A DNA stretch of 64,000 bases from Patescibacteria group bacterium. Lineage in GTDB: Bacteria > Patescibacteriota > Microgenomatia > UBA12405. Each line of letters begins with the position of its first letter. Position 1 is the first letter of the stretch. Positions 41,689 to 63,920 of this stretch are shown here, in pieces. The notes beneath the pieces are model-generated. The model saw only the letters and a program-made list of their open reading frames with translations, searched no databases and had not been told where the DNA came from. A program made the translations under genes and the position numbers. The DNA lies in the NCBI GenBank assembly GCA_013387215.1, contig WARW01000003.1, positions 10,227 to 74,226 on the forward strand, written 5' to 3'.

Positions 41689-42893
41689 ATCAATTTTTTG
41701 ATTGATTTAATAAAGTTGTCTTTAGAAAAACAATCGGCTCGATTAATACAATTTTGAGATATTTTTTGAGAATCTTTTGGAGTTTTAGTAAGTTTTTCCA
41801 ATTCTTGGATTGCCCTAGCACAAGATTCCGGAGTTAATTTATCAAATAAAACTCCGGTTTTACCATCAATAACAGTTTCAGCAGTTCCACCACTTTTAAA
41901 ACCAACAACAGGACAACCAAAAGACATGGCCTCTACCGGAACCATGCCAAAATCTTCATTGTCGGAACAAAACAGAAAAGCTTTGGCTTGGAAATATAGT
42001 TTTTCTTTTTGTTCTTGATTTACTTCACCTAAAAATTCAATGGTGGGGCCAGAGATATTTTTGAGTTCATCCATAAACCCAGCAAAATCACGGCCAAATA
42101 TTTTTAATTTAAGATTCAATTGGTTGCAGGCTTTAATGGCAACATCATAACGCTTAGCTCTAGCTAGTCTGCCGCCTGCTAAAAAGTATGACTCAGATAA
42201 AATTTGGCGGTGCTCGCTACCTTCGGGCTCGACTTCGTTTCGCGTTCGCTGTGCTCCTGAAATTTTATTCTTCGTATTAACGAGCTTCGCCATTTTTGGA
42301 ATTTCTATAGGAGGATTTATAACTATACTGTTTTTACGGTAAAATTTTTCAATGCGGGCGGCAGTGGTTTGAGAATTGGCAATAAATTGATCGACGTTTT
42401 GGGCAAATCTAAAATCTAAAAATCTTAAAAAGTGATTTAAGAATTGAACTATAAAATAAATAAATTTGTTTTTGGTTAAAACTCTGGCAGTGGGCAGACC
42501 ATATAAATAACGAGGCGGAGTGTGGCAATAACAAATTAATTTAGCTTGTTTTTTGTTTAAAGCATTTGGAAAATAGGCACCAGTGGCGGAACTGATAATC
42601 AAGTCGTAATCAGAAAAATCAAAAGAATAAAAAGCTAGCGGCGAAAATAAACGAAGCGGACTGATTATTTTTCTGGCAAAAGGTATAAATTTAAAAAAGC
42701 TTTGATGAATACGACCCGCCCATTTTTTTTGAAGACGATTTTGATGAGGACCTAGAAATTTTGGGCAATAAAGTGAAGTGTAAATCGGAGCATCGGGAAA
42801 AATATCGGAAAAAGTTTCTAGAACTGACTCGGCTCCCCCAAATTCTTTTATATAATCATGAACTAGGGCTATTTTGAGTTTAGTTTGGGTCAT
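41685..42893 (-). CDS. GT4-family glycosyltransferase with GC-rich in-frame insert
   Basis: C-terminal 'FGMVPVEAMSFGCPVVGFKSGGTAETV' GT4 motif; 42207-42257 GC-rich segment encoding 'GAQRTRNEVEPEGSEHRQ'. Confidence 0.7.
   Translation of the reverse strand: MTQTKLKIALVHDYIKEFGGAESVLETFSDIFPDAPIYTSLYCPKFLGPHQNRLQKKWAGRIHQSFFKFIPFARKIISPLRLFSPLAFYSFDFSDYDLIISSATGAYFPNALNKKQAKLICYCHTPPRYLYGLPTARVLTKNKFIYFIVQFLNHFLRFLDFRFAQNVDQFIANSQTTAARIEKFYRKNSIVINPPIEIPKMAKLVNTKNKISGAQRTRNEVEPEGSEHRQILSESYFLAGGRLARAKRYDVAIKACNQLNLKLKIFGRDFAGFMDELKNISGPTIEFLGEVNQEQKEKLYFQAKAFLFCSDNEDFGMVPVEAMSFGCPVVGFKSGGTAETVIDGKTGVLFDKLTPESCARAIQELEKLTKTPKDSQKISQNCINRADCFSKDNFIKSIKKLI
42207..42257. repeat. GC-rich element copy inside GT4 coding sequence
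   Basis: 'ggtgctcgctaccttcgggctcgacttcgtttcgcgttcgctgtgctcc' shares 'gtttcgc(g/t)ttcgct' + 'gtgctcc' with element B; ~60% GC in an AT-rich gene. Confidence 0.45.
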
Positions 42894-42896
42894 AAA

Positions 42897-43847
42897 TTAA
42901 AATAAACTGGTTTGGTTGGGGTCTTCATTTTTTTTGCTTGGTTTGACAATATTATTGTTTTTTTCAAGACGTGCAATTAATGATTTAAAATTATAAGACT
43001 TAAAAACAGCAATTAAGTTTTGCACACAAGTATCACACCATTTAGCATCTGATAATTTAAACTTAAGTGGAATATTATAAACCAAAGTAGCTAGTTTTTG
43101 CGAAAGGTAGGCGTTTTCTTTACCAGAAATTAATTTTTCTTTAAGGCTTGGCTTAATGTTGTCTATATTTTTATAAATATTATCGAGATTTTGATATTCG
43201 GTCAGAAGATCAATAGCAGCTTTAGGGCCGATTCCAGCAACACCTGGATAATTATCCGACATATCACCCATTAAGGCTTTAAGATCAACAACTTGAGTCG
43301 GAAGCACTCCAAGTTTTTCTTTGACTCCTTCGGAATTGATGGTTTTTGTTTCCGAAAGACCACGAATAGGCATAAACAATTCAACTTTTGGCCCAACTAA
43401 CTGCATAATATCTTTATCGCCAGTAATAATGGTGACATTGTCAATAATTCTTTTTTTAGCACCAGTTTGGCTGACTTTTATTTTATTTAAGGCTTTTTTA
43501 GTAATGGTGGCAATTAAATCATCGGCTTCAAAACCACCAATGGCAAAATTAGGGATTTTGGCCTCCTCAAGACTTGATTGAAGCTTCGGAAATTGGCTGA
43601 TCAAATCCATGTCGGCAGGTTTACGTTTCGCACGATAACCAATAAATTCCTCATTGCGAAAATTAGGACCAGGCGAATCGAGACAAACAATTAAATAGTC
43701 CGGTTTTAAGGTGTTAACTGCTGTTAAGATCATGGAATAAAATCCATATAAAGCATTAACCGGCTCGCCGTTTACAGTTAAGGGCGGAATAGAATGATAG
43801 GCACGATGGATGATTGCATGACCATCAACAATGATAAGTTTGGACAT
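42897..43847 (-). CDS. 5'-3' exonuclease (Pol I N-terminal domain-like FEN)
   Basis: 'LIIVDGHAIIHRAYH' and H3TH-like region; 316 aa, no polymerase domain. Confidence 0.8.
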   Translation of the reverse strand: MSKLIIVDGHAIIHRAYHSIPPLTVNGEPVNALYGFYSMILTAVNTLKPDYLIVCLDSPGPNFRNEEFIGYRAKRKPADMDLISQFPKLQSSLEEAKIPNFAIGGFEADDLIATITKKALNKIKVSQTGAKKRIIDNVTIITGDKDIMQLVGPKVELFMPIRGLSETKTINSEGVKEKLGVLPTQVVDLKALMGDMSDNYPGVAGIGPKAAIDLLTEYQNLDNIYKNIDNIKPSLKEKLISGKENAYLSQKLATLVYNIPLKFKLSDAKWCDTCVQNLIAVFKSYNFKSLIARLEKNNNIVKPSKKNEDPNQTSLF

Positions 43848-43876
43848 AAGTTAGTTTAGCAGGTAAAATTTAGGTA

Positions 43877-44782
43877 ATGGAACAACACGCGATTCCACAG
43901 CAGATTTCGTCCTACGAATTTAAATTAGTGGGAGAAATGACGCTAAAACAGTTTATTAAGGCAGCGGCGGGAATTATCCTGGCACTATTAATTAACGCAA
44001 CCAAATTAATTATTATTGTTAAGTGGCCTTTAATGGCAGTTTGCGCTGGAGGCGGATTACTTTTAGCTTTTGTTCCTTTTGAAGACAGACCGCTGGAAAC
44101 CTGGGCAGTAGCTTTTATTAAATCGATTTATTCCCCGACTGTTTATATTTATAAAAAAAGAGCAAGTAAAAATTGGCTAGAAATTGATTTGAATAATATT
44201 ACAGATACAGATGGTGCTGAAACAAACGATGACGAAGAAGTACTAGTGGTTAAAGATAAAACTAAAGTAAGAGAATTTATTCAATCACTGCCTTCAGTTA
44301 AAAGAGAAGTAAAAGAAGAAGTTGAAGAAGTAAAAGAAGTGAAAAAAGTACAAGTACCAGTGAGCAATCCTCAAGTGCAAACCCAAACAGAGGTGGTTAA
44401 AAATATACAAAAGACTGAGGATTGGCATGATCAAAAAACTAATTTGAATTTAAAAACCGAAAAACTCGAAGCGACAGGAAAGGCAAATTTTGGAGCAATA
44501 CCAATGCCTGATATTCCAGAAGTTCCAAATATAGTGGTAGGAATGGCGATGGATAGCAATGGTAAAATTGTGGACGGAGTGATTATTGAAATCCAAGATG
44601 AACATGGTAATCCTTCAAGAGTATTAAAAACCAATTCTTTAGGACAATTTAAAACTTCAACTCCATTAGCTAATGGAAGATATTTATTAGTTTGTGAAAA
44701 AGAAAATTTCAGTTTTGATAGGGTCAATATTGATGTTAAGGGTGAGATTATTAAACCGATAAGGATTATTGCCAATAATTAA
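43877..44782 (+). CDS. PrgI/VirB3-like T4SS membrane protein with C-terminal CarboxypepD_reg-like beta-sandwich
   Basis: N-terminal 'LKQFIKAAAGIILALL...PLMAVCAGGGLLLAFVPFEDRPLETW'; C-terminal 'SNGKIVDGVIIEIQDEHGNP...TNSLGQFKT...ANGRYLLVCEKENFSF'. Confidence 0.45.
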   Translation: MEQHAIPQQISSYEFKLVGEMTLKQFIKAAAGIILALLINATKLIIIVKWPLMAVCAGGGLLLAFVPFEDRPLETWAVAFIKSIYSPTVYIYKKRASKNWLEIDLNNITDTDGAETNDDEEVLVVKDKTKVREFIQSLPSVKREVKEEVEEVKEVKKVQVPVSNPQVQTQTEVVKNIQKTEDWHDQKTNLNLKTEKLEATGKANFGAIPMPDIPEVPNIVVGMAMDSNGKIVDGVIIEIQDEHGNPSRVLKTNSLGQFKTSTPLANGRYLLVCEKENFSFDRVNIDVKGEIIKPIRIIANN

Positions 44783-44816
44783 TATATGATTAAAATATTA
44801 GTTATAAAAAAATAGT

Positions 44817-45524
44817 ATGGCTACCGATCCACTTAAAATTGCCATTAAAGGTACAACTCAAGACCATTTGCCCATCGAAGATGTGGTTGATGGAGTGGTG
44901 ATTTTGAAAGACGGATCATGTGCGATGGTAATGCAGATATCTTCCGTCAATTTTGATTTGTTATCAGAAAAGGAACAATCGGCTTTGGTTTTTGCTTATG
45001 GCGGAATTTTAAATTCTTTGAACTTTCCAATTCAAATAATTATCAGATCAAACGCTAAAGATGTGTCGGTTTATCTTAATAATTTGAAAGACGCCGAAGA
45101 AAAACAAAGCAATTCTCTTTTGAAACAAAGAATTCAACTATACCGAAAGTTTGTTGAAGAAACGGTTAAAAAAAATGATGTGTTATCAAAATCTTTTTAT
45201 GTGGTGGCTCATTTTTCTGCGTTGGAACTGGGAATAAAAAATGCCGGCAAGCAAACATTGAGCACTATTCTGCCTCCTTTAGGAAAATCGCGTTCAACAG
45301 AATTACCATTTTCCAAAGATTATATTCTAGATAAAGCAAAAGCTAGTTTGGAACCGAAAAGAGATCATTTAATGAGATTGTTTTCCCGATTAGGATTGGA
45401 AATTAAACAATTAAACACCAAAGAATTAATCGAACTGTATTATAAAATTTATAATGAAGAAACGGCTGTAAATCAGAAACTGCAAACACTGAATTACAAT
45501 GCACCAATTGTTACCACTAAATAA
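44817..45524 (+). CDS. hypothetical protein, T4SS-cluster associated
   Basis: 235 aa between PrgI-like and VirB4 genes; no family recognised. Confidence 0.4.
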   Translation: MATDPLKIAIKGTTQDHLPIEDVVDGVVILKDGSCAMVMQISSVNFDLLSEKEQSALVFAYGGILNSLNFPIQIIIRSNAKDVSVYLNNLKDAEEKQSNSLLKQRIQLYRKFVEETVKKNDVLSKSFYVVAHFSALELGIKNAGKQTLSTILPPLGKSRSTELPFSKDYILDKAKASLEPKRDHLMRLFSRLGLEIKQLNTKELIELYYKIYNEETAVNQKLQTLNYNAPIVTTK

Positions 45525-45525
45525 A

Positions 45526-48213
45526 ATGAGTATTTTAGATAAATTAATTAAAAAACCGGCAGCTGCACCAAGTACTACTCCAAGTACAACCCAAACTGAT
45601 CCCGTTGAAGAGACCAAACCTTTTACTGAAGGATTAGTGTCGACAAAAGATATTATTGCCCCATCTGCCTTAGAAGTTGATTTTAATCATTTAAGAATTG
45701 ATAATAAATATTACCGAACTTTGTTTGTGGCTGGATATCCAAGATTTGTGGGTATTAATTGGTTGTCGTCTTTGATTAACTTTGATGCTTCTTTGAATAT
45801 TGCTATGTATGTTTATCCAACAGACGGCAAGGCAATTTTGGATGATTTGAGGCGAAAAGTAACGGAAATGGAGGCAGAAATCAGCACTGACATTCAAAGA
45901 GGTAGAGTGGTTAATCCAGCAACACAGGCTAAACTTGAAGATGCATTAAATTTGCAAGCAGATTTAGTAAAAGGTGAAGAAAGATTTTTTCAATTTGGAC
46001 TTTATATTACGATTACTTCAGATTCAAAAGAAGAATTAAACAGAATCAATAAAAATTTGGAAGCAGCTTTGGGATCACTTTTAATTGTGAGCAAAAAAGC
46101 TACTTTGCAAATGGAAGAAGGATTTGTGACCACTCTCCCCGCTTGCGACGATAAACTGCAAATTACCCGAAACATGGATACGACTTCACTAGCCACTACT
46201 TTTCCATTTGTGTCTTCTGATTTATCAGATGATAAAGGAATAATGTATGGAATTAATGCCCACAACGGGTCTTTAGTTATCTTCGACCGATTCTCGATGC
46301 AAAACTACAATTCAGTAGTATTTGCAACTGCCGGTGCCGGAAAGTCTTACATGATAAAACTTGAGGCATTAAGATCTTTAATGCTTGGTTCAGAAATAAT
46401 TGTAATTGATCCAGAAAACGAATATAGAGATTTGTGTGAAGCAGTTGGCGGACAATATATTGCCTTTGGATATGGTGAAGTTTCAAAAATTAATCCTTTT
46501 GATTTATCTTTGGTAGAAGAAGATGGTGAAAATGCTTTAAACAGCAAAGTTTTAAGTCTTCATAAACTTTTCAAAGTGATGATTGGAGCTATGGATCCAA
46601 TTGAAGAATCTATCCTAGATAAGGCAATTATGGAAGCTTATAAAGCTAAGGGAGTGACACCAGATCCAGAAACACAAAAGAGAGAACCCCCGTTGATTGA
46701 AGATTTATATAAAGCATTAATCGGGATGGAAGAACAAAAAGCCCAAAGTTTGGCTGCCCGATTTGAAAAATTTATTAAAGGTTCGTTTGCTGGAATATTT
46801 AATCAAAAGACAACAGTTAATTTGACTAATCCGTTTGTGGTTTTTGGAATTAAAAATCTTGAAGATGCTTTAAGACCAGTAGCTATGCAAATTATTTTGG
46901 ATTACATTTGGACAGTAGTTAAAGCAACTTTAAAAAGAAGAATCTTAGTGGTCGATGAAGCTTGGTATTTGATGCAATATGATGATTCAGCAGAGTTTTT
47001 AAGAGGAATAGTAAAAAGAGGCCGAAAATATTATTTAGGAGTAACAACAATTACCCAAGATGTGGATGATTTTTTGAAAACTAGTTATGGAAAGGAAATT
47101 GTGACTAACAGTGCTATCCAAATTCTTTTAAAACAACATAGTGCGGCAATTGATCAAATCGGTGAAGTTTTTTATTTATCGGAAGGAGAAAAACAATTAT
47201 TATTAAGCGCAGATAAAGGTGAAGGAATATTTTTTGCCGGTCAAAATCATGTGGCTATTCGAGTTATCTCTTCCGATGACGAACATCAATTAATTACTTC
47301 CAACCCAGAAGAGGTTTTAAAAATTAAAAAAACCCAAGCACAAGCTCAAGATTTACCCAAGCCTCCAGTGTTTCCTCCAATAAAAGAAAGTCCTGTGGTT
47401 AATGCTCAGCCAATCAATAATCCAACTCCGATAAATAAACCAATAATTGAAACTAAACCGGAAATTCCTATGACTCCTCCAACATTAGTTGTTGAAAAGG
47501 TAGTGGAAATTAAAATGCCAGAAATTAAGACTCAAGAGACAAATAATGTCAATCCAAGCCCGGTAATAAATAATCCGACACCAGTAAGTCCAACTGTTTT
47601 ACAAACTCCAGCAAGCAATTCTGGGAATCGACCAGAAGTGGTAGTTTTAGATTTACAACAAAGAATTAATGAACTTGAGGAAAAAGAAAAAATAGAATTA
47701 AAAGAACATCAAGAAAAAGAAGAACAAATTAAGCAGGCAAACCAAACACCGGTGTTTACAAAAGAAGGTGAATTGCCAAAGTATCAAGATATATTTAAAA
47801 CACCAAATCCAGTTCAAACAAACCAACTTCCTCCTCTGCCAAAATTAGACCAACCAGTAAATAATAATGTGATTTTAAAAACGGAAACAATTGGAAACTC
47901 AACAAATAATTCTCAATCAAATAATTTGGAAAACAAAAAACCAATCTTTTTGAATCAAGTTGAACAAAAAATTCCGCAGCCACCACAACTGGCCAAAAAA
48001 ATTGTGCCAGAATTTGTGGCGCCAACTCAAAAAACTCCAAGCCAATCTCCTACTCCGACAAGTGAAATAAAACTGCCACCAGTAAAAGCAGCTTCGATTA
48101 ATCCAATACAAACTCCGATTGCAAAAGTAGAAACTCCTAGCACTAATACAGACAAACCTAAAGAAGAGAAAAAACTGAATTATGATGATATTTTTGGTGA
48201 CGGGATTGTGTAA
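45526..48213 (+). CDS. VirB4-family T4SS ATPase with ~300-aa Pro/Thr/Gln-rich C-terminal tail
   Basis: Walker A 'ATAGAGKSY', Walker B 'ILVVDEAWYLM'; low-complexity proline-rich C-terminus; start at internal ATG (MSILDKL) abutting upstream stop. Confidence 0.85.
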   Translation: MSILDKLIKKPAAAPSTTPSTTQTDPVEETKPFTEGLVSTKDIIAPSALEVDFNHLRIDNKYYRTLFVAGYPRFVGINWLSSLINFDASLNIAMYVYPTDGKAILDDLRRKVTEMEAEISTDIQRGRVVNPATQAKLEDALNLQADLVKGEERFFQFGLYITITSDSKEELNRINKNLEAALGSLLIVSKKATLQMEEGFVTTLPACDDKLQITRNMDTTSLATTFPFVSSDLSDDKGIMYGINAHNGSLVIFDRFSMQNYNSVVFATAGAGKSYMIKLEALRSLMLGSEIIVIDPENEYRDLCEAVGGQYIAFGYGEVSKINPFDLSLVEEDGENALNSKVLSLHKLFKVMIGAMDPIEESILDKAIMEAYKAKGVTPDPETQKREPPLIEDLYKALIGMEEQKAQSLAARFEKFIKGSFAGIFNQKTTVNLTNPFVVFGIKNLEDALRPVAMQIILDYIWTVVKATLKRRILVVDEAWYLMQYDDSAEFLRGIVKRGRKYYLGVTTITQDVDDFLKTSYGKEIVTNSAIQILLKQHSAAIDQIGEVFYLSEGEKQLLLSADKGEGIFFAGQNHVAIRVISSDDEHQLITSNPEEVLKIKKTQAQAQDLPKPPVFPPIKESPVVNAQPINNPTPINKPIIETKPEIPMTPPTLVVEKVVEIKMPEIKTQETNNVNPSPVINNPTPVSPTVLQTPASNSGNRPEVVVLDLQQRINELEEKEKIELKEHQEKEEQIKQANQTPVFTKEGELPKYQDIFKTPNPVQTNQLPPLPKLDQPVNNNVILKTETIGNSTNNSQSNNLENKKPIFLNQVEQKIPQPPQLAKKIVPEFVAPTQKTPSQSPTPTSEIKLPPVKAASINPIQTPIAKVETPSTNTDKPKEEKKLNYDDIFGDGIV

Positions 48214-48249
48214 GTTTTAGGTCTGAATGATTGATATAATTTGTATAAA

Positions 48250-48283
48250 CAGTGCCTTGTTAATATCTAACACTGTTTTTTAC
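48250..48283 (+). terminator. possible terminator/attenuator after VirB4 gene
   Basis: aacagtg-N16-cactgtt followed by TTTTT; large loop, weak. Confidence 0.25.
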
Positions 48284-48316
48284 GCTTTTGTAAATTTTAT
48301 TTATATCTTGTAATAA

Positions 48317-51300
48317 ATGCCAGATCTAGCGACTGCTCAGAAAAATCCGATTGAGAAAAAAATAGACTACTTAAATGCGAGTGAAATTTCGACTCCTGAA
48401 GAAGCTATTGAGGTATTAAGAGAACTAAGAAATATTGGTGGAAAATTAATTAAAGGAAGTGTTCTTGAAAAAAGTATTGAGAATTATTTAGGCGAACTTG
48501 AGGTTTATGATGTGCCAAGCGTTATTGAAGCATTGAAAGACTTTGAGACAAAGACGGATGATAATTTTGATAAAGCGGCAGTTCCAGTCGCAAAAATTGA
48601 TGAATTAGTAGACGAATATGAAGAATATCTAGAAAAAGGATTTGACAGTGAAGAGGCTGCAGATAAAATTTATAAAGAAAATAAGGGATTAATTTCAAGA
48701 AAAACTATTGATAGTTTTGTTCAAAGACAACGAGAAATTTTTGAAAACAATTTAAAGAAAGTAAATGAAACTAAAAAACCTTTAACTCAGGAAAAATTAA
48801 TCGATTTAAATAAATACCGACAAGAAAGTGAAGCGACAACTCAAAACATAAAGACAGGTTTTAATGAAAAAGATAATAATTCCGAAAATAATGTAATTGA
48901 TTTAGGGAAATATAAGCAAAATACGATTGATGATTTTTATGATTTAAAACCAGACGTAAAAGAAAATAAAAAATATGATTTAAAACCAGAAAATAAAGCG
49001 AAAAAAGTTATTGATTTGGACTCATATATTCAAGGAAAAGAAGAGGTTGAAGATATAACTACTAATACTGATGCAGGAAAATATGAATCAAATAAAAATA
49101 AAGTAGAAGAACAAGTTGAAATAATCAGTAAAGAACAATTTAAATTTGAGAATAAAGTTGAAGAAGAATTATTAAAGTATCAAAAACAAGACATAAAATC
49201 AGACAGCAGTGTTGATGAAAAAGTAAAAGAAGAATTAAAAAAAGTATCAAGAGATATTTCAAAACAAACATTCGAATCTGTAGTTTTAAACGAAAAAGAT
49301 GTGGATATAGAAACAGTTGATAGAGTTGTAGAAAAGATAAGCGATGAATTGCCTTACTCCATAATTAAACCAGAAGAAAAAGAAACATTTAAAGCTAATT
49401 TAAAAGAAGAAATTGAAGTCGTTACCGCTAATATTGCCGTTGAAGCAAAAACTGAGGAAATTAGCCAGAAAATAATTTTAGAATTAAAGAAAGACGAAAG
49501 AACCGAGGAATTAATTAAGAGAAACAGCGACGTTGTTGAAAATAAAATCGAGACAGCAGTTAAGAATGTAATTTTAGGCGAAGAGGTTGTTACTAAAACA
49601 GAGCAAATAAATGACTTAAATTCCGAAATTATTAGGATTCTAAAAGAAGAAGATGTGAGCGACTTTAAACACGAAGCTCCAGTAAATAAAACCGCCATAA
49701 AAACAATCGATTTAGAATTAAATAAATGGGTAGAAACAAATAGAGAAACGGTTCAAGATTTTAGAGGCGATCATCTTGAAAAAATAATTGATCTTCAAAT
49801 CCAAAAAGAAAATCCATATTTAAGCGAAGAACAAAAAGTCCAAGTCCAAAAATATAAACAATTAATCAGAGAAATATATTATTCCGACAGCACACTTGAA
49901 AAATATAAAAATGATGCCGTAAATAATGCCTCTAAAACTAATAGTCCAGGACAAATAAATCAAGCTTGGACCGATTTAAAAGGAATAACAAATTTACTTA
50001 AAAAAAAGCCTGGGGATGTTAAAGATATTTTTAAAAGATATGATGACATTAAAAAGGGACTTGGCAATATTAATTTACCTTTTGATATTAAAGAATGCCG
50101 ATCTTTTGAGAATATTGCAAATGTTTTAACTAATCCCCAAATTAACGTTTTATTTGGAAAAGCGCAAAAATACATTACTTATCTAGAAAAATTAGATAGC
50201 TTTTCAGGAGGACTTTTGGGAAAAGCCGGAATGAAGGGGGCTAATTATATTATAGAGAGAATTGGCAACCAGGCAGTAAAGGCTTTTGCAGAAAATTCAT
50301 TAAAAATAATTGCAGAAAAAGGTTTACAGGAAGGTTTTGGAATTGTATTGAGAGGAATTTTAAGTGGTGGTGTGCAAGCTGGTGCTAGCGCAGCCGCCAG
50401 CGGAGCTGCAGTAGCAGGTGGAGCAGCGGCAACAGGAGTAGCAGTAGTCGGAGGGGCGGCTTTATCAGCAACAGGAGTTGGAGCAATTGTAGTAGCGGCA
50501 GCGACAGTTTTAGGAGTAGTAAAAAAAGTTGTTAATAAAATAAAAGATGGGATTTTAAAATCTTTAGGGATTGAGTCTGGTTTATTTGGAGCTAAACAGT
50601 TTTTTCAGGATAATTTTGGTAAAGGTTTAGGTGGAATATTAGGTAAAGGAGTAGAGTTAGTAGAATTATTAGTAGTAGGAACCATTGCTTTGGTTGCAGC
50701 TGTTTCAGCAGCAGCAGTCGGCCCAATAATAATTGCCTTTTTTGTGGGATTATTTGGATATCAAATGCTTCAAGGACACACTGTTTCCAGTTTAGTTCCA
50801 CCAACCACACTCCAAGACAGCACAGATATAAATGAGGAAGGCGGACAAGTTTTTGATCCAGGCAGTGTTCATAGTTTAAATTTAAGTTTTAATGTGCCAG
50901 TGGTAGGCGCTGAGTTTACTCGAGCGGATTTAGTGAATGTGGCCCAATCATTATTGGGATTACCTTATTTTTGGGGCGGAAAATATCCTCATAAAGGAGC
51001 AAACCCTAGCTGGGGGCAATTAAAAACAGTAACTGCTGATAAGAGTTGGTCAACCGGACTCCAAATTCCATCAGGATTAGATTGTTCTGGATTCGTTGAT
51101 TGGGCTTATTTTCAATTAACAGGCAGACAAATTTCAAACGGCGGCGGATCGGCAGATATCTGCAATTTAGCGGCACCAGTGGCTAGAGCAAGCTTAAAAG
51201 CTGGAGATGTGGGTTGTATGGATGGCCATGTAGCATTGTGTATTGGAACTGATCCGACAGATGGAGAGCCATTATTTATCCAAGCTGTTGGTCAAAGATA

Positions 51301-51430
51301 TAGAGATAATTCAAAAGGGTTGGTGGCTGGTCAAGTTTTGATATTAAAAGAAGGGATAGAATATAATGGTTATGTAGGACCTACTTTTACTAGTTACGGA
51401 CGACCAAATGTTACTTTTAAGGATAATTGA
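48317..51430 (+). CDS. large T4SS-associated cell-wall hydrolase: acidic coiled N-region, Gly/Ala-rich TM core, C-terminal NlpC/P60 domain
   Basis: 'GLDCSGFVDWAYFQLTG' catalytic Cys, 'GHVALCIG' His; hydrophobic Gly/Ala-rich segment aa ~650-800. Confidence 0.7.
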   Translation: MPDLATAQKNPIEKKIDYLNASEISTPEEAIEVLRELRNIGGKLIKGSVLEKSIENYLGELEVYDVPSVIEALKDFETKTDDNFDKAAVPVAKIDELVDEYEEYLEKGFDSEEAADKIYKENKGLISRKTIDSFVQRQREIFENNLKKVNETKKPLTQEKLIDLNKYRQESEATTQNIKTGFNEKDNNSENNVIDLGKYKQNTIDDFYDLKPDVKENKKYDLKPENKAKKVIDLDSYIQGKEEVEDITTNTDAGKYESNKNKVEEQVEIISKEQFKFENKVEEELLKYQKQDIKSDSSVDEKVKEELKKVSRDISKQTFESVVLNEKDVDIETVDRVVEKISDELPYSIIKPEEKETFKANLKEEIEVVTANIAVEAKTEEISQKIILELKKDERTEELIKRNSDVVENKIETAVKNVILGEEVVTKTEQINDLNSEIIRILKEEDVSDFKHEAPVNKTAIKTIDLELNKWVETNRETVQDFRGDHLEKIIDLQIQKENPYLSEEQKVQVQKYKQLIREIYYSDSTLEKYKNDAVNNASKTNSPGQINQAWTDLKGITNLLKKKPGDVKDIFKRYDDIKKGLGNINLPFDIKECRSFENIANVLTNPQINVLFGKAQKYITYLEKLDSFSGGLLGKAGMKGANYIIERIGNQAVKAFAENSLKIIAEKGLQEGFGIVLRGILSGGVQAGASAAASGAAVAGGAAATGVAVVGGAALSATGVGAIVVAAATVLGVVKKVVNKIKDGILKSLGIESGLFGAKQFFQDNFGKGLGGILGKGVELVELLVVGTIALVAAVSAAAVGPIIIAFFVGLFGYQMLQGHTVSSLVPPTTLQDSTDINEEGGQVFDPGSVHSLNLSFNVPVVGAEFTRADLVNVAQSLLGLPYFWGGKYPHKGANPSWGQLKTVTADKSWSTGLQIPSGLDCSGFVDWAYFQLTGRQISNGGGSADICNLAAPVARASLKAGDVGCMDGHVALCIGTDPTDGEPLFIQAVGQRYRDNSKGLVAGQVLILKEGIEYNGYVGPTFTSYGRPNVTFKDN

Positions 51431-51869: not shown

Positions 51870-51897
51870 TTTTTGGGAAATATAATATAATTTTAAT

Positions 51898-52326
51898 ATG
51901 AATCTTTTTCAGTTCGTAAAGAAATATCAATTGATTTTAATTTTAAGTTTTATAGCAATAAGTTTGTTTATAATTAAATCGGTTTACGGATATAAAGATT
52001 CTGGAGTGAAACCAGAAATTTCTATCTCGCCTACTCCATCGGCTTCAGCTGAAATTTCACCAACAAATATCCCAACAATTCCTGTTTCCAGCTCAAGTTC
52101 TAAATTAAAAACTTCTATTATTAAAGAAGTATCAAAAAGTGCAACAAATAAGTTAAAATTACCCTACTCTTCAAAAAATTTTATTGTTCAAGAATTTGAT
52201 TCGGTTAATACTTTTAAAGTAAAACTATTGAATCCTGATAAGGCAGTTGTTATACAGGAAATAATAAAATGGCTGGAGAAGAATGGATTAAATCCAGTAG
52301 ATTACCAAGTAGTTTTTGTTAATTAA
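51898..52326 (+). CDS. hypothetical membrane-anchored protein
   Basis: N-terminal TM, Ser/Pro-rich linker; no motif. Confidence 0.35.
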   Translation: MNLFQFVKKYQLILILSFIAISLFIIKSVYGYKDSGVKPEISISPTPSASAEISPTNIPTIPVSSSSSKLKTSIIKEVSKSATNKLKLPYSSKNFIVQEFDSVNTFKVKLLNPDKAVVIQEIIKWLEKNGLNPVDYQVVFVN

Positions 52327-53441
52327 TCTTGCAAACGGACAGGCATGATGATGTGGGTGAATTGAGGATCAGATTGGTCATGAAAACAGCCAGGAGTTAA
52401 TGGTTCATTTAATTCAATTAAAATTTCTTGGCTTTTACAAACATTTAGGAAATCAGATAAGAATTTATAATTAAAAGCAATTTCTAAAGTTTCCCCTTCT
52501 ATCTTAGATTCAATTGAAGCTTTGTTTTGACCAACTTGAGGAGCATTGGCGGTAATATCGATGGAATTAGTTTTAATATTTAATTTAATAACATTAGCTG
52601 ATTCTTTAGCAAAAACTGAAGCAATTTTGACTGCTTGAGTAAATTCATCTTTATTTAAAAATAATTTAGTAGTGAAAGATTCAGGAATAATTCTTTTATA
52701 TTCCGGATAATCCCCTTCAATAAGACGGGAAACCAACTCTACGTCGTCTAGAACGAATACAACTTGGTGACCATCAGGTGTTAGCCCTATTTTTATTTTC
52801 TTGGCGTTTTTAGCAAGTTTAGTGACTTCGATTAAACTTTTTGCCGGAATTAAGAAAGTAATTTGGTCAGAATTTAAATTTATTGGATTGACGAGTTTAA
52901 TACTTTTAAAAGAAAGTCTAAAACCATCGGTGGCAGCTAAGGTTAAATTATCTTCAGAAAATTGACAAAGAATAGCAGTTAAAGCTGGTCGAGTGTCATC
53001 GGTGGCAGCGGCAAAGGCTAGTTGGGTAATAGCTTGATTTAAAATAGACAAATCGATTTCAAAGGAAGTGTTTGGATCGATACTTGGAAATTCAGGAAAA
53101 TCAGCAGCACTAACAGTGGTAAAACTTGATTCAGATTTAGCAGAAGAAAGAGTAAGTAAATTATTCTCATTTAAAGTGAGGTCGACTTTACCTGAGGAGA
53201 GATAAGAAACAAATTCTGTAATCTCTTTGGCTGGGATAGTTATACTTCCCTCTTCTTCAATTTTGGCACCAATCCAATAATTAATACTCAACTCTAAATT
53301 AGTAGCTGAGAGTTTAAGACGACCATTATCAGTAGATAAGAGAATGTTATTAAGAATAGGTAGTTGTGACTTAGAAGAAACGAACCGAGACACATTACTT
53401 AGGGCAGTTGTAAGATTCTCTTGTAGAAGGGAAAGCTTCAT
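52323..53441 (-). CDS. dnaN: DNA polymerase III beta sliding clamp
   Basis: 'MKLSLLQENLTTALSNVSRFVSSKSQLPILNNILL' typical DnaN N-terminus; 372 aa; downstream of dnaA. Confidence 0.9.
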   Translation of the reverse strand: MKLSLLQENLTTALSNVSRFVSSKSQLPILNNILLSTDNGRLKLSATNLELSINYWIGAKIEEEGSITIPAKEITEFVSYLSSGKVDLTLNENNLLTLSSAKSESSFTTVSAADFPEFPSIDPNTSFEIDLSILNQAITQLAFAAATDDTRPALTAILCQFSEDNLTLAATDGFRLSFKSIKLVNPINLNSDQITFLIPAKSLIEVTKLAKNAKKIKIGLTPDGHQVVFVLDDVELVSRLIEGDYPEYKRIIPESFTTKLFLNKDEFTQAVKIASVFAKESANVIKLNIKTNSIDITANAPQVGQNKASIESKIEGETLEIAFNYKFLSDFLNVCKSQEILIELNEPLTPGCFHDQSDPQFTHIIMPVRLQD

Positions 53442-53701
53442 TGGCTTTATGTTATCAACAAATTAACAAAGTTTAAAGCTCTTAATAAAATTAAATATTT
53501 ATATCAAGAATAGTAGTAGGTATTAGTAGGGAGAGTGAATAAGTGGAGTATTTTTTAATTTGACCGAAAATTTGGCAATTTTTAAATAAAATAGTGGTGG
53601 AAAGTATTAAAATGGTTGTAGTAGTGGTGAAAAAAGATGTTTTTATCTTATAAGGTAAACTTGAGTTTGGGTAAGTTTCGGGGGAAAAGACAAAATTAAA
53701 A

Positions 53702-53743
53702 TGTGGATAAGTTTGTGGATAAGTGGAATCCAAGTGTGGAAAA
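53702..53743. promoter_or_regulatory. DnaA-box cluster in dnaA-dnaN intergenic region (oriC part)
   Basis: TGTGGATAA at 53702-53710 and 53714-53722 (perfect reverse complements of TTATCCACA), TGTGGAAAA at 53735-53743; AT-rich flank 53442-53700. Confidence 0.6.
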
Positions 53744-53755
53744 CTTCAGACAGGG

Positions 53756-55117
53756 TTAGAAAGCACTTTTAATTTGGTTGATAAGTTGTCTGAGTTGTGG
53801 ATTAGTGGAAAAATCAGTGCTGACTTTGTCACGGGCGTGCATAATACTGGTATGGTCGCGGCCACCAAGCAAATGCCCTACTTCTTCAAGGGGTAAATTT
53901 ATTTCTGTTAATAAAAGATAAGCAGTGATATGGCGGGCGGAAACTAATTCTTTTTTACGGCTTTTTCCGCAAAGATCACTAGTTTTTATATTAAAATGTT
54001 TAGCACAGATAGAAATTATATGGCGAGGAGAAACCTTTTCAGAGCTGACAGAAAAAATCGAACTAGAATTAGGATTAGTTTGAGGGTGTAAATAATTTTC
54101 AATAAAATCCACATCAATCATACTGACTCGTTGGGCCATGGATTGAACAACAACCTCTTGGAGTTTACCTTCAATTTCACGAATATTTGCAGGGATATTA
54201 TTAGCAAGAACTTGAACGGCTTCAGGAGTTATTTGAACGCCTTTTTCTTCGACTTTTTGATTAATAATAGCGACCCGCATTTCATAGTCAGGAAGCTGAA
54301 TATCGACGGTTAATCCCCCCATAAACCGGGAAACTAAACGATCTTCAAGGCGATCGATTTCACTAGGCTTGCGGTCGGAAGTTAAAATTACCTGTTTTCC
54401 GGCCATATGAAGAGCATTGAAAGTGTGGAAAAATTCTTCTTGAATATATTCTTTGCCAGCAATAAATTGAATATCATCAACTAAAATACAATCAAGTTTT
54501 CGATATTTATCTTTAAACTGATTCATGTTTTTAGATTTGAGAGCGCTTATCAGTTCATTACTAAAGGTTTCGGCGGGAAAATACTTAATTTTCATGTCAG
54601 GAGAATGCTTTAGAAGTTCATGGCCAATAGCCTGCATTAAATGGGTTTTACCAACACCGACTCCACCCCAAATAAAGAATGGGTTGTAAGAAAGACCAGG
54701 ATTTTTAACAATACCTTGAGCGGCAGCATAGGCAAAATTATTACTATTGCCGACAATTAAGGTTTCAAAAGTATATTTAGGATGAAGACAAGAGAAATCG
54801 ATAGTGTTTTTTTGAGGAGAAAAGGAGAAAAGCGGGGCGGAAGTGCTGTCTACTATAGAATCCCCTTTTGGGGCTTCCTGGATAATAAAATTTAAAACAT
54901 TACTGGATTTAGTTTGGTTATCAAGGGCACTTTTAAAAAGATCGTAATAGCGTTTATGATTAATATCAACTAAATAAGAATTAGGACAAGCAATAATAGC
55001 AATATTATTTTCAATACTGATTAATTGAGTTTTGGCAACAAAAGTTTGGAAGACAGCGGGAGCTAGAACTATTTTAAGTTCCTCTTGTGTGTTTTTCCAA
55101 ATTCTTATCAAATCCAT
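53756..55117 (-). CDS. dnaA: chromosomal replication initiator
   Basis: AAA+ Walker A 'GGVGVGKTHLMQAIGHE', 'ILVDDIQFIAGK', C-terminal DnaA-box-binding 'HTSIMHARDKV'. Confidence 0.9.
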   Translation of the reverse strand: MDLIRIWKNTQEELKIVLAPAVFQTFVAKTQLISIENNIAIIACPNSYLVDINHKRYYDLFKSALDNQTKSSNVLNFIIQEAPKGDSIVDSTSAPLFSFSPQKNTIDFSCLHPKYTFETLIVGNSNNFAYAAAQGIVKNPGLSYNPFFIWGGVGVGKTHLMQAIGHELLKHSPDMKIKYFPAETFSNELISALKSKNMNQFKDKYRKLDCILVDDIQFIAGKEYIQEEFFHTFNALHMAGKQVILTSDRKPSEIDRLEDRLVSRFMGGLTVDIQLPDYEMRVAIINQKVEEKGVQITPEAVQVLANNIPANIREIEGKLQEVVVQSMAQRVSMIDVDFIENYLHPQTNPNSSSIFSVSSEKVSPRHIISICAKHFNIKTSDLCGKSRKKELVSARHITAYLLLTEINLPLEEVGHLLGGRDHTSIMHARDKVSTDFSTNPQLRQLINQIKSAF

Positions 55118-55461: not shown

Positions 55462-55468
55462 TTAGTGA

Positions 55469-56010: not shown

Positions 56011-56016
56011 TAACTT

Positions 56017-56796: not shown

Positions 56797-56841
56797 TAAT
56801 ATTGGGGATTAAAACTCAATAATGCATGGTAAAATAGCCCT

Positions 56842-57312: not shown

Positions 57313-57334
57313 AATATTTATGCTAAGATAGGGC

Positions 57335-58552: not shown

Positions 58553-58587
58553 ATAAAAAGTCAGGATAGGAATGGTAAAATTGATGG

Positions 58588-59805: not shown

Positions 59806-59813
59806 TGTTTTAT

Positions 59814-59892
59814 ATTTAGCTTTGTAATTTGCAGTGCTCGAGCCTTCGTAATATCCACTCAGATACTGCGCGCTTAAATAACAAAGCTAAAT
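59814..59892. repeat. GC-rich hairpin element A1
   Basis: Perfect 12-bp IR atttagctttgt / acaaagctaaat flanking 55-nt GC-rich core with 'gcagtgctcgagccttcg'. Confidence 0.6.
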
Positions 59893-59911
59893 TTATTCCA
59901 TTTTTTTTAGA

Positions 59912-59971
59912 TCGTGATTTGCGGTACTCACGCGTTCACTTTGTTCACATGATTCCGTTCCTAAATCACGA
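59912..59971. repeat. GC-rich hairpin element A2
   Basis: 9-bp IR tcgtgattt / aaatcacga flanking core 'ctcacgcgttcactttgttcacatgattccgt'. Confidence 0.6.
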
Positions 59972-60318
59972 CCTAAAATAATATACATTTGATATATTCC
60001 CCTAGCTAAAATAATGACGTTTTTACAACGTGAAAACCCCTAAAATCAGTACTGTGCTGACATTTTTTTGATAGAAAATTTTTTCTTTTCAAGATTCCCC
60101 TCTCGGAACCAGGTTCGATTTTGAAAAATACCATCTGAACTCGTTTGTATTTACATTAAAAATACTTACATATATCTATAATCACGTCATTACATTTTTT
60201 CACGTTACTCCTTATAATTAATTAGCTTGGTTATGACTATTTTTGGCAAGTAATAACCGCATAATAACCGATTTATTACCGTAAGAAAATAGTAAACATT
60301 TAAACTAAAATAAGTAGT

Positions 60319-63300
60319 ATGAACTCCGATTTACCAAACGCTTTAATTATTGGAATCGGACATTTTGCTGCTAAAAAACTAGCCGAAGAAATTGTAAGTA
60401 AAGACATTAACGTGGTAGGAGTGGGGGAATATGTGGATGGGTTGAATGAGATTAAGAATTTCAATTATTTTGCTAATTTAGAGGAAGTAGAGGGTAATTT
60501 TAATTATGTTTTTGATTTTAACGGGGATCTTGGAGCTTGGAATAATTTAGTGGAAGAAAGTGAAAAAATAACCATAATTTGCATTAATAACCAGTTGAAG
60601 TCAGAGCAATTGCAAGGCCAGTTGAAAAACAATAAGTTGAATTGGCGATTGGTGGAAGCTAATGGAGTATATGGGCCGGGGATGGATGATAATGAAGAAA
60701 GCAAAGATACTGGATTTTTAGTGGCGGCTTTTAAACAAGCAGTACTTAATAAAAATTTATTGCTGCCACCAGTAGAGGATAGATTTAGGTTGTTGTGTGT
60801 GGAAGATTTGGTAGATGCAGTTTTAAGAGCAAGTTTTTTGTCCGGAACTGAAGAAGAAATTTATACGTTAGCGGGAAGTGAAATTAATTCAGAAATATTA
60901 GCCGGCGTTTTGATAAACGAGGCTAAGATGACAAGGTATAAGGTGATGCAAAAAAAGATGGAACTTTTGGAATGGGATGAAAAGAAAATTTTGGAAACTC
61001 AAAAGAAACTGAGATGGCAGGCAAGGATTGATTTTAATGATGGAGTTAAAGAAACGTTGCAATATTTTTTTGTAAAAATAGATGAAGAAAGTAGAAGAAA
61101 ACCTGAGAAAAAAGAAGTGAAGAAAACAGTAATTTTGCCGGAAGTTGAAGAAAAAAGAGAAAGCCCTAAAAAATCATTTGAAGTAATTGTGGAAGAAAAA
61201 ATTGAAGAAGAACCGGTAAAAATAATTGAAGAGGAAGAAGTAAAAGAGGTGGAAAAGCCAATAGAAAAGGAAATAATTAAGAAAGAAGAAAAAAAAGAGG
61301 AACACCCAACTCATATTTTTAAACCATTGTCGTTTGAAGAAAAAAAAGAAGAAGAAGCAGTTTTGGTTGAAGAAATGGACGATTTTAGTCAATTTGTGGT
61401 AAAGAATTCAAACATGAGACAGGCAAGAAGCGAGCCGGTTGAGGAAAGTAAACCAGAAGAGAAAAAACCAGAAATAATAGAAGAAAAAAGAACGGAAAAG
61501 AAGAATAGAAGACCAAGCTTAAAAATAAAAATAAATAAGAAAGCCTTAATTTTTGCGATTGTTTCAGTATTAATTGTGGTTTTAGCCGTGCCAGTCGGTT
61601 GGGGAATCTCGACTTATAAGGCTTGGAAAAGCATAAATGAAATATCAGTTTTGACTAAAAATAAAAAGTATACTGAAGCTGAAAATTTGGGAAATAAGCA
61701 TTTGATTAAACTGAGAACGATTGATGGAAAAATTGACGATTGGGGATTAAATCAATTTGCGGGAATGCGGCATTATCAAACTGTTATTAAAGCGGAAGAA
61801 GAAGCATTGGGACTAGAAAGCAAATTGGTTGAATTGGCCCAATCGGGAGATGAAATAAATGATGCGATTTTTAAAAACAAAGCCATAGATTGGGATAAGG
61901 AATTAAATTCAGTTTCGGGAAATTTAGATGATGTTTCAAGCAAAATCGGAGTGCTTCAAGCCAGACTGAGTGGAGATTGGGAGTGGCTGCCAATGAGATG
62001 GAGAAGCGGACTGCAGAAGAAAATTGCTGACCTGAATCAAGGCAAAAAATATATTGAGTTATCTTCAAAAGCAATAAAAATTGCTCCGGACTTTTTGGGT
62101 TTAGATGGAAAGAAACGAGAATATTTAGTTTTGCTTCAAAATGAAACAGAAATAAGACCTGGCGGCGGATTTATTGGCTCATATGGGCTTTTGAGTTTCG
62201 AGAAGGGAAAGCTTTTAAATTTTGAAATCAAAGATGTTTATGAGGCTGACGGCCAGCTGAATGGACATGTGGAACCACCAGAAGAAATCAAAAATTATTT
62301 GGGAGAAGCCAACTATTATATGAGAGATGCAAATTGGAATGCTAATTTTCCAGATGCAGCAGTTGATTTACAATGGTTTTTAGACAAGGAAACTGGCAAA
62401 AAAGTAGATGGGGTGATTGGAATTAACTTGGGAGTGGCAAGAGCAGTTCTTGGGGCTGTTGGAGAGGTATTTGTCCCTGATTTTAAAGAAAGGATTAATA
62501 AAGATAATTTGTATGAACAAGCAGAATTTTATGCCGAAACAAAATTTTTCCCAGGATCAACTCAAAAGGCAAGCTTTTTGGGAGGTTTAGGAAAACAATT
62601 ATTTGATAATATTCAAAACCTAAAAGCTGATCAGAAATTAAGTTTAGTGGAAGCCTTAATCGACTCTTTGCAAAAAAATAATATGCAGATTGCACTTAAT
62701 AATAAAAATTCTGCCAATGTTTTGGCGGATTTGAATTGGAATGGAGCCATATATCAGGGAAAATGCGGAGTGGAGGGTTGCATTAGTGATTATCTGTATG
62801 TGGTTGAAGCTAATTTGGGAGTAAATAAAGCCAACTACTTTTTGTATCGAACCATGGAAGAAACAGTTGATTTTTCCAACCAATCTTTAAGCCGAGTATT
62901 AAAAATCAATTATGAAAATACGGCTAAAAATGCTAATTGGCCAGGCGGTGACTATAAAAACTATATGAGAATTTATTTGCCAAGCAATGTCAATTTGTCA
63001 CAAGTAAGTTTGATTGATACCAATAATCCAACATCTAAAAAAACATATTCTGATGGGGAGTTGAAAATAAGAGAAATTAATGGAAAAAAAGAAATTGGTT
63101 TTCTGATGACAGTGCCAGTTTCGACCAAAAGAACTGTGGAAGTCAGATATTCAACCGGAATTGATTTGAGTAAAATGAATAAAATTTCTTATGTTAATTA
63201 TTTTCAAAAACAATCAGGTTTTGGAGATACAGGTTTGGTTACTTTAATTTCATATCCACCAGAATGGCAGGCAGTTCAAGTGCAACCTACTGCTAGTTTA

Positions 63301-63372
63301 GTGGGAGGAAAACTATTGTTTAATTCTAAATTGGATCAGGATATTAAGATGGGGATTGAGTTGGACAAATAA
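60319..63372 (+). CDS. large membrane-anchored protein: Rossmann-like N-domain, Lys/Glu-rich linker, TM, C-terminal DUF4012-like domain
   Basis: 'LQNETEIRPGGGFIGSYGLL' and following region resemble DUF4012; 'KKEE'-repeat low-complexity linker aa 250-400; single TM 'ALIFAIVSVLIVVLAVPVGW'. Confidence 0.5.
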   Translation: MNSDLPNALIIGIGHFAAKKLAEEIVSKDINVVGVGEYVDGLNEIKNFNYFANLEEVEGNFNYVFDFNGDLGAWNNLVEESEKITIICINNQLKSEQLQGQLKNNKLNWRLVEANGVYGPGMDDNEESKDTGFLVAAFKQAVLNKNLLLPPVEDRFRLLCVEDLVDAVLRASFLSGTEEEIYTLAGSEINSEILAGVLINEAKMTRYKVMQKKMELLEWDEKKILETQKKLRWQARIDFNDGVKETLQYFFVKIDEESRRKPEKKEVKKTVILPEVEEKRESPKKSFEVIVEEKIEEEPVKIIEEEEVKEVEKPIEKEIIKKEEKKEEHPTHIFKPLSFEEKKEEEAVLVEEMDDFSQFVVKNSNMRQARSEPVEESKPEEKKPEIIEEKRTEKKNRRPSLKIKINKKALIFAIVSVLIVVLAVPVGWGISTYKAWKSINEISVLTKNKKYTEAENLGNKHLIKLRTIDGKIDDWGLNQFAGMRHYQTVIKAEEEALGLESKLVELAQSGDEINDAIFKNKAIDWDKELNSVSGNLDDVSSKIGVLQARLSGDWEWLPMRWRSGLQKKIADLNQGKKYIELSSKAIKIAPDFLGLDGKKREYLVLLQNETEIRPGGGFIGSYGLLSFEKGKLLNFEIKDVYEADGQLNGHVEPPEEIKNYLGEANYYMRDANWNANFPDAAVDLQWFLDKETGKKVDGVIGINLGVARAVLGAVGEVFVPDFKERINKDNLYEQAEFYAETKFFPGSTQKASFLGGLGKQLFDNIQNLKADQKLSLVEALIDSLQKNNMQIALNNKNSANVLADLNWNGAIYQGKCGVEGCISDYLYVVEANLGVNKANYFLYRTMEETVDFSNQSLSRVLKINYENTAKNANWPGGDYKNYMRIYLPSNVNLSQVSLIDTNNPTSKKTYSDGELKIREINGKKEIGFLMTVPVSTKRTVEVRYSTGIDLSKMNKISYVNYFQKQSGFGDTGLVTLISYPPEWQAVQVQPTASLVGGKLLFNSKLDQDIKMGIELDK

Positions 63373-63382
63373 ATTTTGTTTC

Positions 63383-63478
63383 GTTTTGAGATTTCCGGTG
63401 TCCTCTAAAAGGACTCGCTTCGCAGCGCTCACGCGTTTCGCTTCGCTCACATGATTGTGCTCCGTAGAATCTCAAAAC
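63383..63478. repeat. GC-rich hairpin element B
   Basis: Perfect 11-bp IR gttttgagatt / aatctcaaaac; core shares 'ctcacgcgtt' (63428-63437) and 'tcacatgatt' (63446-63455) with element A2. Confidence 0.6.
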
Positions 63479-63545
63479 TTCACTTTATATCGTGCTAAAA
63501 ATTTCTTTTGCTTCGCCAGCATTATTTGATTGATAAAATAGGGAT

Positions 63546-63839
63546 ATGAAAATGAAAAAAGTGGTGGAGAATTTTAGATGTGAAAATTGCGGTTTTGAAA
63601 TGAAAGGCGATGGCTGTACTGATCATTGCTCACAGTGTTTATGGGGAAAACATGTGGATGAAGCAGTGCCTGGCGATAGGTTAAGCGGTTGCAAAGGTTT
63701 GATGGAGCCGATTAGAACCAGCTATCAAAATGATAATTTTAGAATTTATTACAAGTGCACTAAGTGTAATCATGATTTTTGGGTTAGGGAAGGCAAGGAT
63801 GATAATAGAGATAAATTAATTGAATTGAGTGGTAATTAA
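63546..63839 (+). CDS. RNHCP-domain-like zinc-ribbon protein (8 Cys)
   Basis: 'FRCENCG...GCTDHCSQC...GCKG...YKCTKCNHDFW' eight cysteines in four pairs. Confidence 0.5.
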   Translation: MKMKKVVENFRCENCGFEMKGDGCTDHCSQCLWGKHVDEAVPGDRLSGCKGLMEPIRTSYQNDNFRIYYKCTKCNHDFWVREGKDDNRDKLIELSGN

Positions 63840-63860
63840 TTAACAAGTAAATAAATTTTT

Positions 63861-63920
63861 GCTACGAATTTTTTTCTCCCTCAATGCGTTACCGCGTTGA
63901 AACTCGTAAAAAATTGTAGC
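63861..63920. repeat. GC-rich hairpin element C (degenerate)
   Basis: Imperfect IR gctacgaattttttt / aaaaaattgtagc around 'ctccctcaatgcgttaccgcgttgaaactcg'. Confidence 0.4.

Follow-up and report, generated by a model that had tools for sequence, protein, structure and literature searches.

The DNA analysed here, 64,000 nucleotides of contig WARW01000003.1 from a Patescibacteria group bacterium, is referred to as the window. It has a G+C content of about 32% and a gene content that is typical of bacteria of the Candidate Phyla Radiation (CPR). The subject of this report is a family of GC-rich hairpin elements, each a 64-132-nt imperfect palindrome, of which the window holds four copies, termed A, B, C and G (Table 1). 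Elements A and B lie next to each other in the gap between a Polysacc_synt gene and a DUF4012 gene, C lies beyond the other end of the DUF4012 gene, and G lies within a gene for a GT4 glycosyltransferase; the closest named homologues of the GT4 and DUF4012 proteins are those of Candidatus Shapirobacteria. A preliminary description, made from the sequence alone, had proposed a dispersed miniature family of GC-core hairpins that included these copies and a further hairpin, D. The existence of such a family is supported by covariance-model matches, by relatives in other genomes and by the inverted repeat that each copy has of its own.

As had been described, AT-rich inverted repeats enclosing GC-rich cores are present at A, B, C and D, and these four intergenic hairpins fold better than shuffled sequences, with z scores of -3.2 to -4.6 (-4.0 for A and -4.5 for B). 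The window contains four perfect stems, 9 bp or longer, that enclose a GC-rich loop of 20-90 nt, as against 0.43 +/- 0.67 in shuffled sequence; three of the four are G, B and C. The motif GCRGYRCTCRC, with at most one mismatch, is found at six sites where 1.2 are expected; four of the six are A, B, C and G. Elements B and C have CTCACGCGTT and TCACATGATT in common, B with the exact form CTCACGCGTT...TCACATGATT, and their local alignment has a z score of 10, its score being reached by 0 of 200 shuffles. The similarity that the preliminary description had pointed to is therefore above chance; 'cttcg', one of the motifs it listed as shared, has no signal of its own. Element C contains an additional small hairpin at 63400-63414. 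A scan of the window for tRNA and tmRNA genes returned none.

Table 1. Hairpin elements of the window and the gene in which element G lies.
Feature	Positions	Strand	Description
Element A	59811-59895	+	degenerate member; arms 59811-59830 / 59876-59895, core 59831-59873
Element B	59900-59984	+	canonical member; arms 59900-59920 / 59963-59984, core 59921-59961
Element C	63383-63478	+	canonical core 63422-63463; arms 63383-63393 / 63468-63478
Element G	42195-42271	+	diverged member in GT4 gene, antisense to the gene; arms 42195-42205 / 42260-42271
Hairpin D	63861-63920	+	non-member; AT-stem/GC-core element of its own, core CTCCCTCAATGCGTTACCGCGTTGAAACTCG
GT4 glycosyltransferase gene	41685-42893	-	Pfam Glyco_transf_4 (residues 18-196), Glycos_transf_1 (residues 234-376)

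Two covariance models, neither of which had G in its training set, were used to assess membership. The first (R1), trained on the public and intergenic copies, recovers G at E = 1.6e-4. The second (R2), run over the 64 kb with filters off, gives significant matches only to B (72 bits), A (62 bits) and C (53 bits), whose scores hold by construction because all three are training sequences, and to G (29.5 bits, E = 4e-5). Across the models B scores 72-75 bits, training copies have E-values of 1e-10 to 1e-19, and untrained copies first found with R1 have E-values of 6.9e-12 to 1.6e-4. The GC-rich segment of the GT4 gene was thus rightly taken for an in-frame member of the family. Hairpin D, which had been counted as another member (at 63840-63922), was rejected: it reaches only 14.5 bits (E ~1) with R2 and has no significant pairwise similarity to the family, and we therefore regard it as a different element. 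It is kept in the syntenic relative L023 (about 14925-14990), with two compensatory stem changes, and is missing from the syntenic relatives L024 and L025.

From species-representative genomes and metagenomes we collected loci matching the pattern CTCACGCGTT-N(3-15/20)-TCACATGATT, in which 20 bases are exact. These scans yielded four true loci in species-representative genomes and seven distinct metagenome loci: one in a Shapirobacteria metagenome-assembled genome (MAG; L001), one in a Woesebacteria MAG (L005), two (L003 and L006) on a single contig of another MAG, and one on each of seven metagenome contigs. The documented host taxa are Shapirobacteria and Woesebacteria only, the record with L003 and L006 carrying an unconfirmed Gammaproteobacteria label, and the host contigs span 33-50% GC. 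All true relatives share GTG before the pattern and GCGCKC after it, and each lies within its own inverted repeat. Five other loci (L002, L004, L008, L014 and L018) have neither similarity outside the pattern nor an inverted repeat of their own and were therefore set aside as chance matches, four of them (all but L004) being matches in coding sequence. In L004 (4040-4338), an Omnitrophota contig ends in a 43-nt tandem repeat that contains both 10-mers of the pattern and has no further similarity to the family. The consensus of the true copies is TTTT-GCnGTGCTCACGCGTT-(variable loop of 8-16 nt)-(C)TCACATGATTGCGCKC-nn-AAAA, atop a copy-specific AT-rich lower stem; the real variation of the family is shown by the copies that were found independently of the pattern (L025, L026, L027 and L028) together with A and G. 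Viral contigs gave no match to three patterns, covering the main family and D. When the canonical element was translated in its three open frames and searched for among proteins, there was no scored match, so that canonical in-frame copies in other proteins are either rare or were missed by the word index. We found no prior description of the family in CPR bacteria in the literature searched, and this family of Shapirobacteria and Woesebacteria appears to be undescribed.

The same hairpin architecture is seen in every true copy. The GC-rich upper stem has fixed irregularities, namely a G.T wobble beside a C x A mismatch, plus bulges, and ends in an apical loop of 8-16 nt, of which there are a few subfamily-specific variants. 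This upper stem is held between a T-run and an A-run, and the AT-rich lower stem beneath it is different in every copy. Covariation was counted for 22 pairs over 16 aligned copies, using as controls shuffled sequences and partners slid by 1-3 columns. Standard pairs fill 85.5% of the cells, compared with 68.6% after shuffling and at most 52% after sliding, and 60 cells are changed on both sides, compared with 23.5 +/- 3.6 and 13-26, respectively. Covariation is found in the core as well as in the copy-specific lower stem: the core pairs 38-60 and 39-59 have undergone GC-to-CG and UA-to-CG switches, in three sequences each, with zero unpaired cells.

Element G lies in the linker between the two Rossmann-type domains of the GT4 protein. 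Its arms are ATAAAATTT and AAATTTTAT, and its core (42206-42259) adds, in frame, 19 residues to the protein, SGAQRTRNEVEPEGSEHRQ. AlphaFold gives residues 206-232 a pLDDT (predicted local distance difference test) below 50, and we therefore consider the insert to be part of a disordered inter-domain linker. In a survey of 120 GT4 orthologues, in which synteny supports true orthology of the compared loci, the shortest linkers have 16-20 aa, whereas those of about 45 element-bearing proteins have 33-43 aa. The extra residues are reverse-strand translations of the element (for example, FSAQSCKRS..REHCK, FSRAQSSEWRSYEGVSTxK and FSARNIRGAMPKGVSTEK), and, at the level of sequence, the reading frame stays open through the insert in all of these (~45 of 120). 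The preliminary description was correct in that the segment is in frame, but the insert is not private to this genome; to judge from the orthologues, it has long occupied the linker, is widely shared and has been remodelled repeatedly.

The DNA of the GT4 site supplies three further kinds of observation. One is that the site bears copies of varying quality: L027 is near-canonical (E = 7e-12), L026 has E = 6e-5 and L028 is similar to the window version. The orthologue L019, 75% identical, shares the copy of the window, and, given that the arms are identical and the core has drifted towards AT, we conclude that this copy has been inherited vertically and is decaying. Another is that the arms, both of which are coding, are lineage-specific (GTCTAA.., GATGRTRA.., ATAAAA..) and yet still complementary. 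Finally, cores of different subfamilies occupy the same site, which requires re-insertion or gene conversion beyond vertical descent alone. The orthologue L021 has no insert, but its divergence is too great for an empty site to be defined from it at the nucleotide level.

GT4 genes also hold GC-rich inserts of other kinds. A second family, unrelated to the first and made up of GC-rich double hairpins whose in-frame translation is SPLSRGDARRAEGF, PALSREGARRAEGF or SLSREDVDLSTGGF, occurs at the GT4 N-terminus (L026, 10040-10090) and in the same GT4 linker, in about 30 of the 120 orthologues. A third in-frame GC-rich insert lies between an A-run and a T-run in the GT4 orthologue of L028 (about 10140-10210; peptide NRTCPSGR); the core of this insert, GGGAATCGAACC..., is similar to the T-arm of a tRNA read backwards.

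In all, the family occupies three types of site: intergenic gaps, a protein linker and a ribosomal RNA helix, the last represented by the L003 copy, which lies in a 110-nt insertion in the apical loop of a helix of the 23S rRNA. Intergenic copies usually fill an entire gap of 80-100 nt. Relative to neighbouring genes they are found in sense and in antisense, between convergent and between divergent genes, and the neighbours are ordinary housekeeping genes, no particular gene being associated.

Presence and absence of copies differ between syntenic sites. In the gap between the Polysacc_synt and DUF4012 genes, A and B are missing in the syntenic relatives L023 (protein 70% identical) and L024 (62%). 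At the position of C, L025 bears a copy that belongs to the family but has a different stem and falls into a different subfamily, while L023 (13082-14605) and L024 (13103-14650) have a gene of 507-515 aa and no spacer. The occurrence of copies on both sides of the DUF4012 gene, to which the preliminary description drew attention, is therefore incidental. The 507-515-aa gene, which lies between the DUF4012 and RNHCP genes in L023 and L024, has no Pfam match and is missing from the window (63373-63545) and from L025. At the A/B position L025 (about 9640-9700) has an unrelated AT-stem/GC-core hairpin, TCATAAATTTTTT[ATGTCTGGTGAATGTGCGTTGCACGTTCAAGGCCAC]AAAAAATTATGA.

Pairwise identity among elements A, B and C is 62-75%, and their identity to copies in other contigs is 79-88%, the closest relatives being L005 of Woesebacteria for A (79%), L016 for B (88%) and L009 for C (84%); copies at the GT4 site share 87-90% identity with intergenic copies from elsewhere. 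Since these identities are higher between contigs than within the window, the loop subfamilies cut across genomes and site types.

The orientation of the element follows an asymmetry between the DNA strands. Its top strand (5'-GTGCTCACGCG...) coincides with the G-rich strand in every contig, that is, in the window, in L001, L003/L006, L005, L007, L009, L010, L012, L015, L016 and L025, and at the GT4 site, and the positive skew holds in genes of both orientations. Over about 10 independent contig groups and the GT4 site, the association has a two-sided p of ~0.002 or lower; the five chance-match loci, taken as a control, have skews of -0.11 to +0.05. In most bacteria the G-rich strand is the leading-strand sequence and hence the lagging-strand template. 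It is mainly because orientation follows the G-rich strand that we favour a mechanism acting on single-stranded DNA (ssDNA), such as that of the IS200/IS605 Y1/HUH transposases, which use the lagging-strand template for excision as well as for insertion (PMC6006769). The whole window and the L023-L025 loci have a very strong strand-wide GC skew (0.1-0.5).

From these observations, we hypothesize, with a probability of roughly 0.55, that A, B, C and G belong to a non-autonomous family of DNA hairpins of Microgenomates-group CPR bacteria, similar in kind to repetitive extragenic palindromes (REPs), MITEs (miniature inverted-repeat transposable elements) and Rickettsia palindromic elements (RPEs), and that the family acts as an ssDNA hairpin. 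The element would fold as single-stranded DNA on one replication strand, and a trans-acting protein would recognise the conserved upper hairpin and either copy the element or convert an existing copy. Later, replication with fold-back or template switching, or else selection for the hairpin, would make the lower stem or keep it complementary, and copies would persist only where a self-contained hairpin is harmless: in short intergenic gaps, at the tip of an rRNA helix or in a disordered linker that is read in frame. We thus infer mobility, an ssDNA intermediate, a mobilising protein and an origin for the lower stem. The copy-specific stems could stem from insertion into existing palindromes, from template-switch 'palindrome correction' or from selection for the hairpin; palindrome correction of this type both creates and maintains hairpins (PMC8794818).

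The likenesses to known systems are instructive in both directions. As in the REP/REPIN-RAYT system (TnpA_REP, Y1 HUH), the element is a short GC-rich imperfect palindrome with fixed irregularities and no coding capacity, and its orientation bias fits the ssDNA chemistry of that system (PMC6006769, PMC3116915, PMC3333891). Like REPs and REPINs, it is mostly extragenic, occurs in both orientations relative to genes and is sometimes found in adjacent copies, here A and B. REPs, however, have a conserved tetranucleotide guide (GTAG-like) 5' of the hairpin foot (PMC6006769), whereas the flanks of 18 hairpins of the present family are unconserved, with no foot tetranucleotide, and share only the T-run and an in-stem GCnG. 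Nor is a RAYT gene seen among the 30 open reading frames scanned in the window and the neighbours of other copies, and, while REPs are species-specific and homogeneous within a genome, where they have many near-identical copies, here there are four copies in 64 kb, with copy-specific lower stems and with subfamilies that extend across class-level lineages. Unlike that of a MITE, the outer inverted repeat differs from copy to copy, the shared ends being only TTTT/AAAA and the GC clamp, and no direct repeats flank the hairpins; AAATTT at the GT4 site is readable as a duplication but is itself palindromic. An autonomous insertion sequence with matching ends, as MITEs have, is absent from the sequences examined.

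RPEs are hairpins of about 100 nt, with no transposase, that lie in frame within genes as well as between them. By that description they are like the present family, which also has a hairpin in frame in a protein-coding gene and others between genes; they differ in that their hosts belong to an unrelated phylum and in that the conserved part here is only ~45 nt, with stems that vary between copies. The intervening sequences (IVSs) of 23S rRNA are defined by position and by excision with RNase III. The L003 copy resembles them in that it extends the tip of a 23S helix by an AT-rich hairpin, but the present family is a sequence family with further copies in intergenic gaps and in proteins. Yeast mitochondria have GC clusters (e.g. 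GC42), which are palindromes of ~40 nt, GC-rich within an AT-rich genome as here, with a constrained hairpin, changes concentrated in the loops, polymorphic insertions and no known enzyme (PMC4478555). They differ in being mitochondrial and in having an AG dinucleotide target duplication, and the passages drawn on here report neither a copy-specific long lower stem nor a strand rule for them (PMC4478555). By analogy, then, the family would work like REP/REPIN elements, RPEs and yeast GC clusters, but it lacks the foot tetranucleotide and the within-genome homogeneity of REPs, and the shared terminal repeats and target duplication of MITEs.

Several points weigh against a mobile hairpin family. 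Pfam identifies no transposase or mobilising gene among 30 open reading frames of the window, which include most of those above 110 aa, or among 10 neighbours of other copies, and the 18 hairpins have neither a target-site duplication nor conserved nucleotides at the foot. No recently duplicated, near-identical pair is found within any one genome examined. Density is low, at four copies in 64 kb, and the 46 kb of the L026-L028 loci contains GT4-site copies only. The sequences of L023 and L024 at the A/B position are remnant-like, so that loss in these relatives is possible instead of gain in the genome of the window. At dnaA/dnaN (52323-55117; likewise in L023-L025) the skew keeps its sign, though gene orientation flips there, so that to take the G-rich strand for the lagging-strand template is an assumption. 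Because the search for public copies used a pattern of 20 exact bases, the conservation of those bases is partly by construction. Lastly, the subfamilies either predate the compared genomes or move between them, which would also suit a conserved functional site.

Such a site is the alternative that we take most seriously, while considering it unlikely: a host-functional ssDNA hairpin signal (e.g. in priming, pausing or recombination), or a binding site for a host protein, that is kept by selection with slow loss and gain. It would fit the conservation of the core in Shapirobacteria, in Woesebacteria and on contigs with a GC content of 33-50%, covariation that extends into this core, discrete loop subfamilies that are common to several genomes and not homogenised within one, an orientation locked to the G-rich strand and a low copy number. 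It would not lead one to expect that the element is missing at syntenic sites of the closest relatives, that its translation inside a protein linker is tolerated, where the L019 copy is decaying towards AT, that a copy lies within a 23S rRNA helix, or that no particular gene is associated.

A specific variant of mobile-hairpin spread dispenses with a dedicated transposase. The upper hairpin, on the lagging-strand template, might be copied into the tops of other hairpins or replace them, with fold-back (template switching) making the stem from the local flank. We rate this as improbable, slightly below the host signal. It would explain the copy-specific stems, the coding arms at the GT4 site, which diverge between lineages and are still complementary, and the occupation of one site by cores of different subfamilies; if true, it would be a mode of repeat spreading undescribed in bacteria.

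The preliminary description had also allowed for a structured RNA, that is, a cis-regulatory element or small RNA whose stem is under selection at the RNA level. The strong, covarying hairpin, with a G.U pair in the core of 16 of 16 aligned copies and an adjoining C x A mismatch in canonical copies, would agree with this. These two features, however, favour neither strand, since their counterparts on the opposite strand are A x C and U.G; nor is the strand indicated by the mismatches of the stems, of which 15 are G.T and 12 are A.C. Moreover, the core is asymmetric, yet copies lie in both orientations to flanking genes and to transcription, while orientation tracks the asymmetry of the DNA strands; copies also lie within coding sequence and within rRNA; and Rfam gives no overlap with the elements, either in the window at gathering thresholds or at four loci at E <= 10. 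A structured RNA is thus the weaker of the two readings put forward, and in our judgement doubtful.

That the hairpins are ordinary intrinsic terminators or gene-end hairpins with a mere resemblance to one another is suggested by the location of A, B, C and D directly downstream of + strand genes and by the T-run after A. It is contradicted by their anatomy: a T-run precedes and an A-run follows the GC stem on either strand, so that no U-tract follows, the opposite of an intrinsic terminator. Several copies, besides, are upstream of or antisense to genes, and the core is common to distant genomes and also found within genes, which makes this explanation very unlikely. That GC-rich patches in a genome otherwise rich in AT are similar by chance does account for the five scan matches set aside above, but is refuted for the family by the B-C alignment (z = 10), the E-values of untrained copies, similarity beyond the search pattern and the architecture common to every true copy.

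Other features of the window may be recorded briefly. Triple (T)AACCG repeats, about 10-11 nt apart, lie upstream of the DUF4012 gene (60253-60281) and, inverted, upstream of ftsH (63949-63980); the motif is conserved in the syntenic L023-L025 and looks like a shared, putative operator or promoter element. Seven sulfatase (PF00884) paralogues are found at 22032-32831, six of which are arrayed head to tail on the + strand, with a period of 1.53-1.59 kb and 64-79% DNA identity. A type IV secretion-like cluster (PrgI-like, TraC-like, TraG/VirB4 ATPase) lies beside dnaN at 43877-51430, with a large NlpC/P60-type protein in relatives; given that its position is syntenic in all relatives examined, we regard it as chromosomal and not as a recent island.

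The genomes of CPR bacteria (Patescibacteria) are small and usually regarded as poor in repeats. The family described here is unusual in its copy-specific lower stems, in subfamilies that cross lineages and in an orientation that follows the G-rich strand. An element able to settle in intergenic gaps, in helices of rRNA and in the linkers of proteins would make sense of a part of the insertions in CPR rRNAs and proteins that have gone unexplained, and could serve as a marker in annotating them. It would add a case of selfish or semi-selfish DNA translated within proteins outside Rickettsia and organelles. The GT4 linker, home to at least two unrelated hairpin families depending on the lineage, offers a natural test site for the persistence of such elements, and the combination of G-rich-strand association with copy-specific stems may provide a way to study ssDNA-based spread and the origin of hairpins through replication errors.

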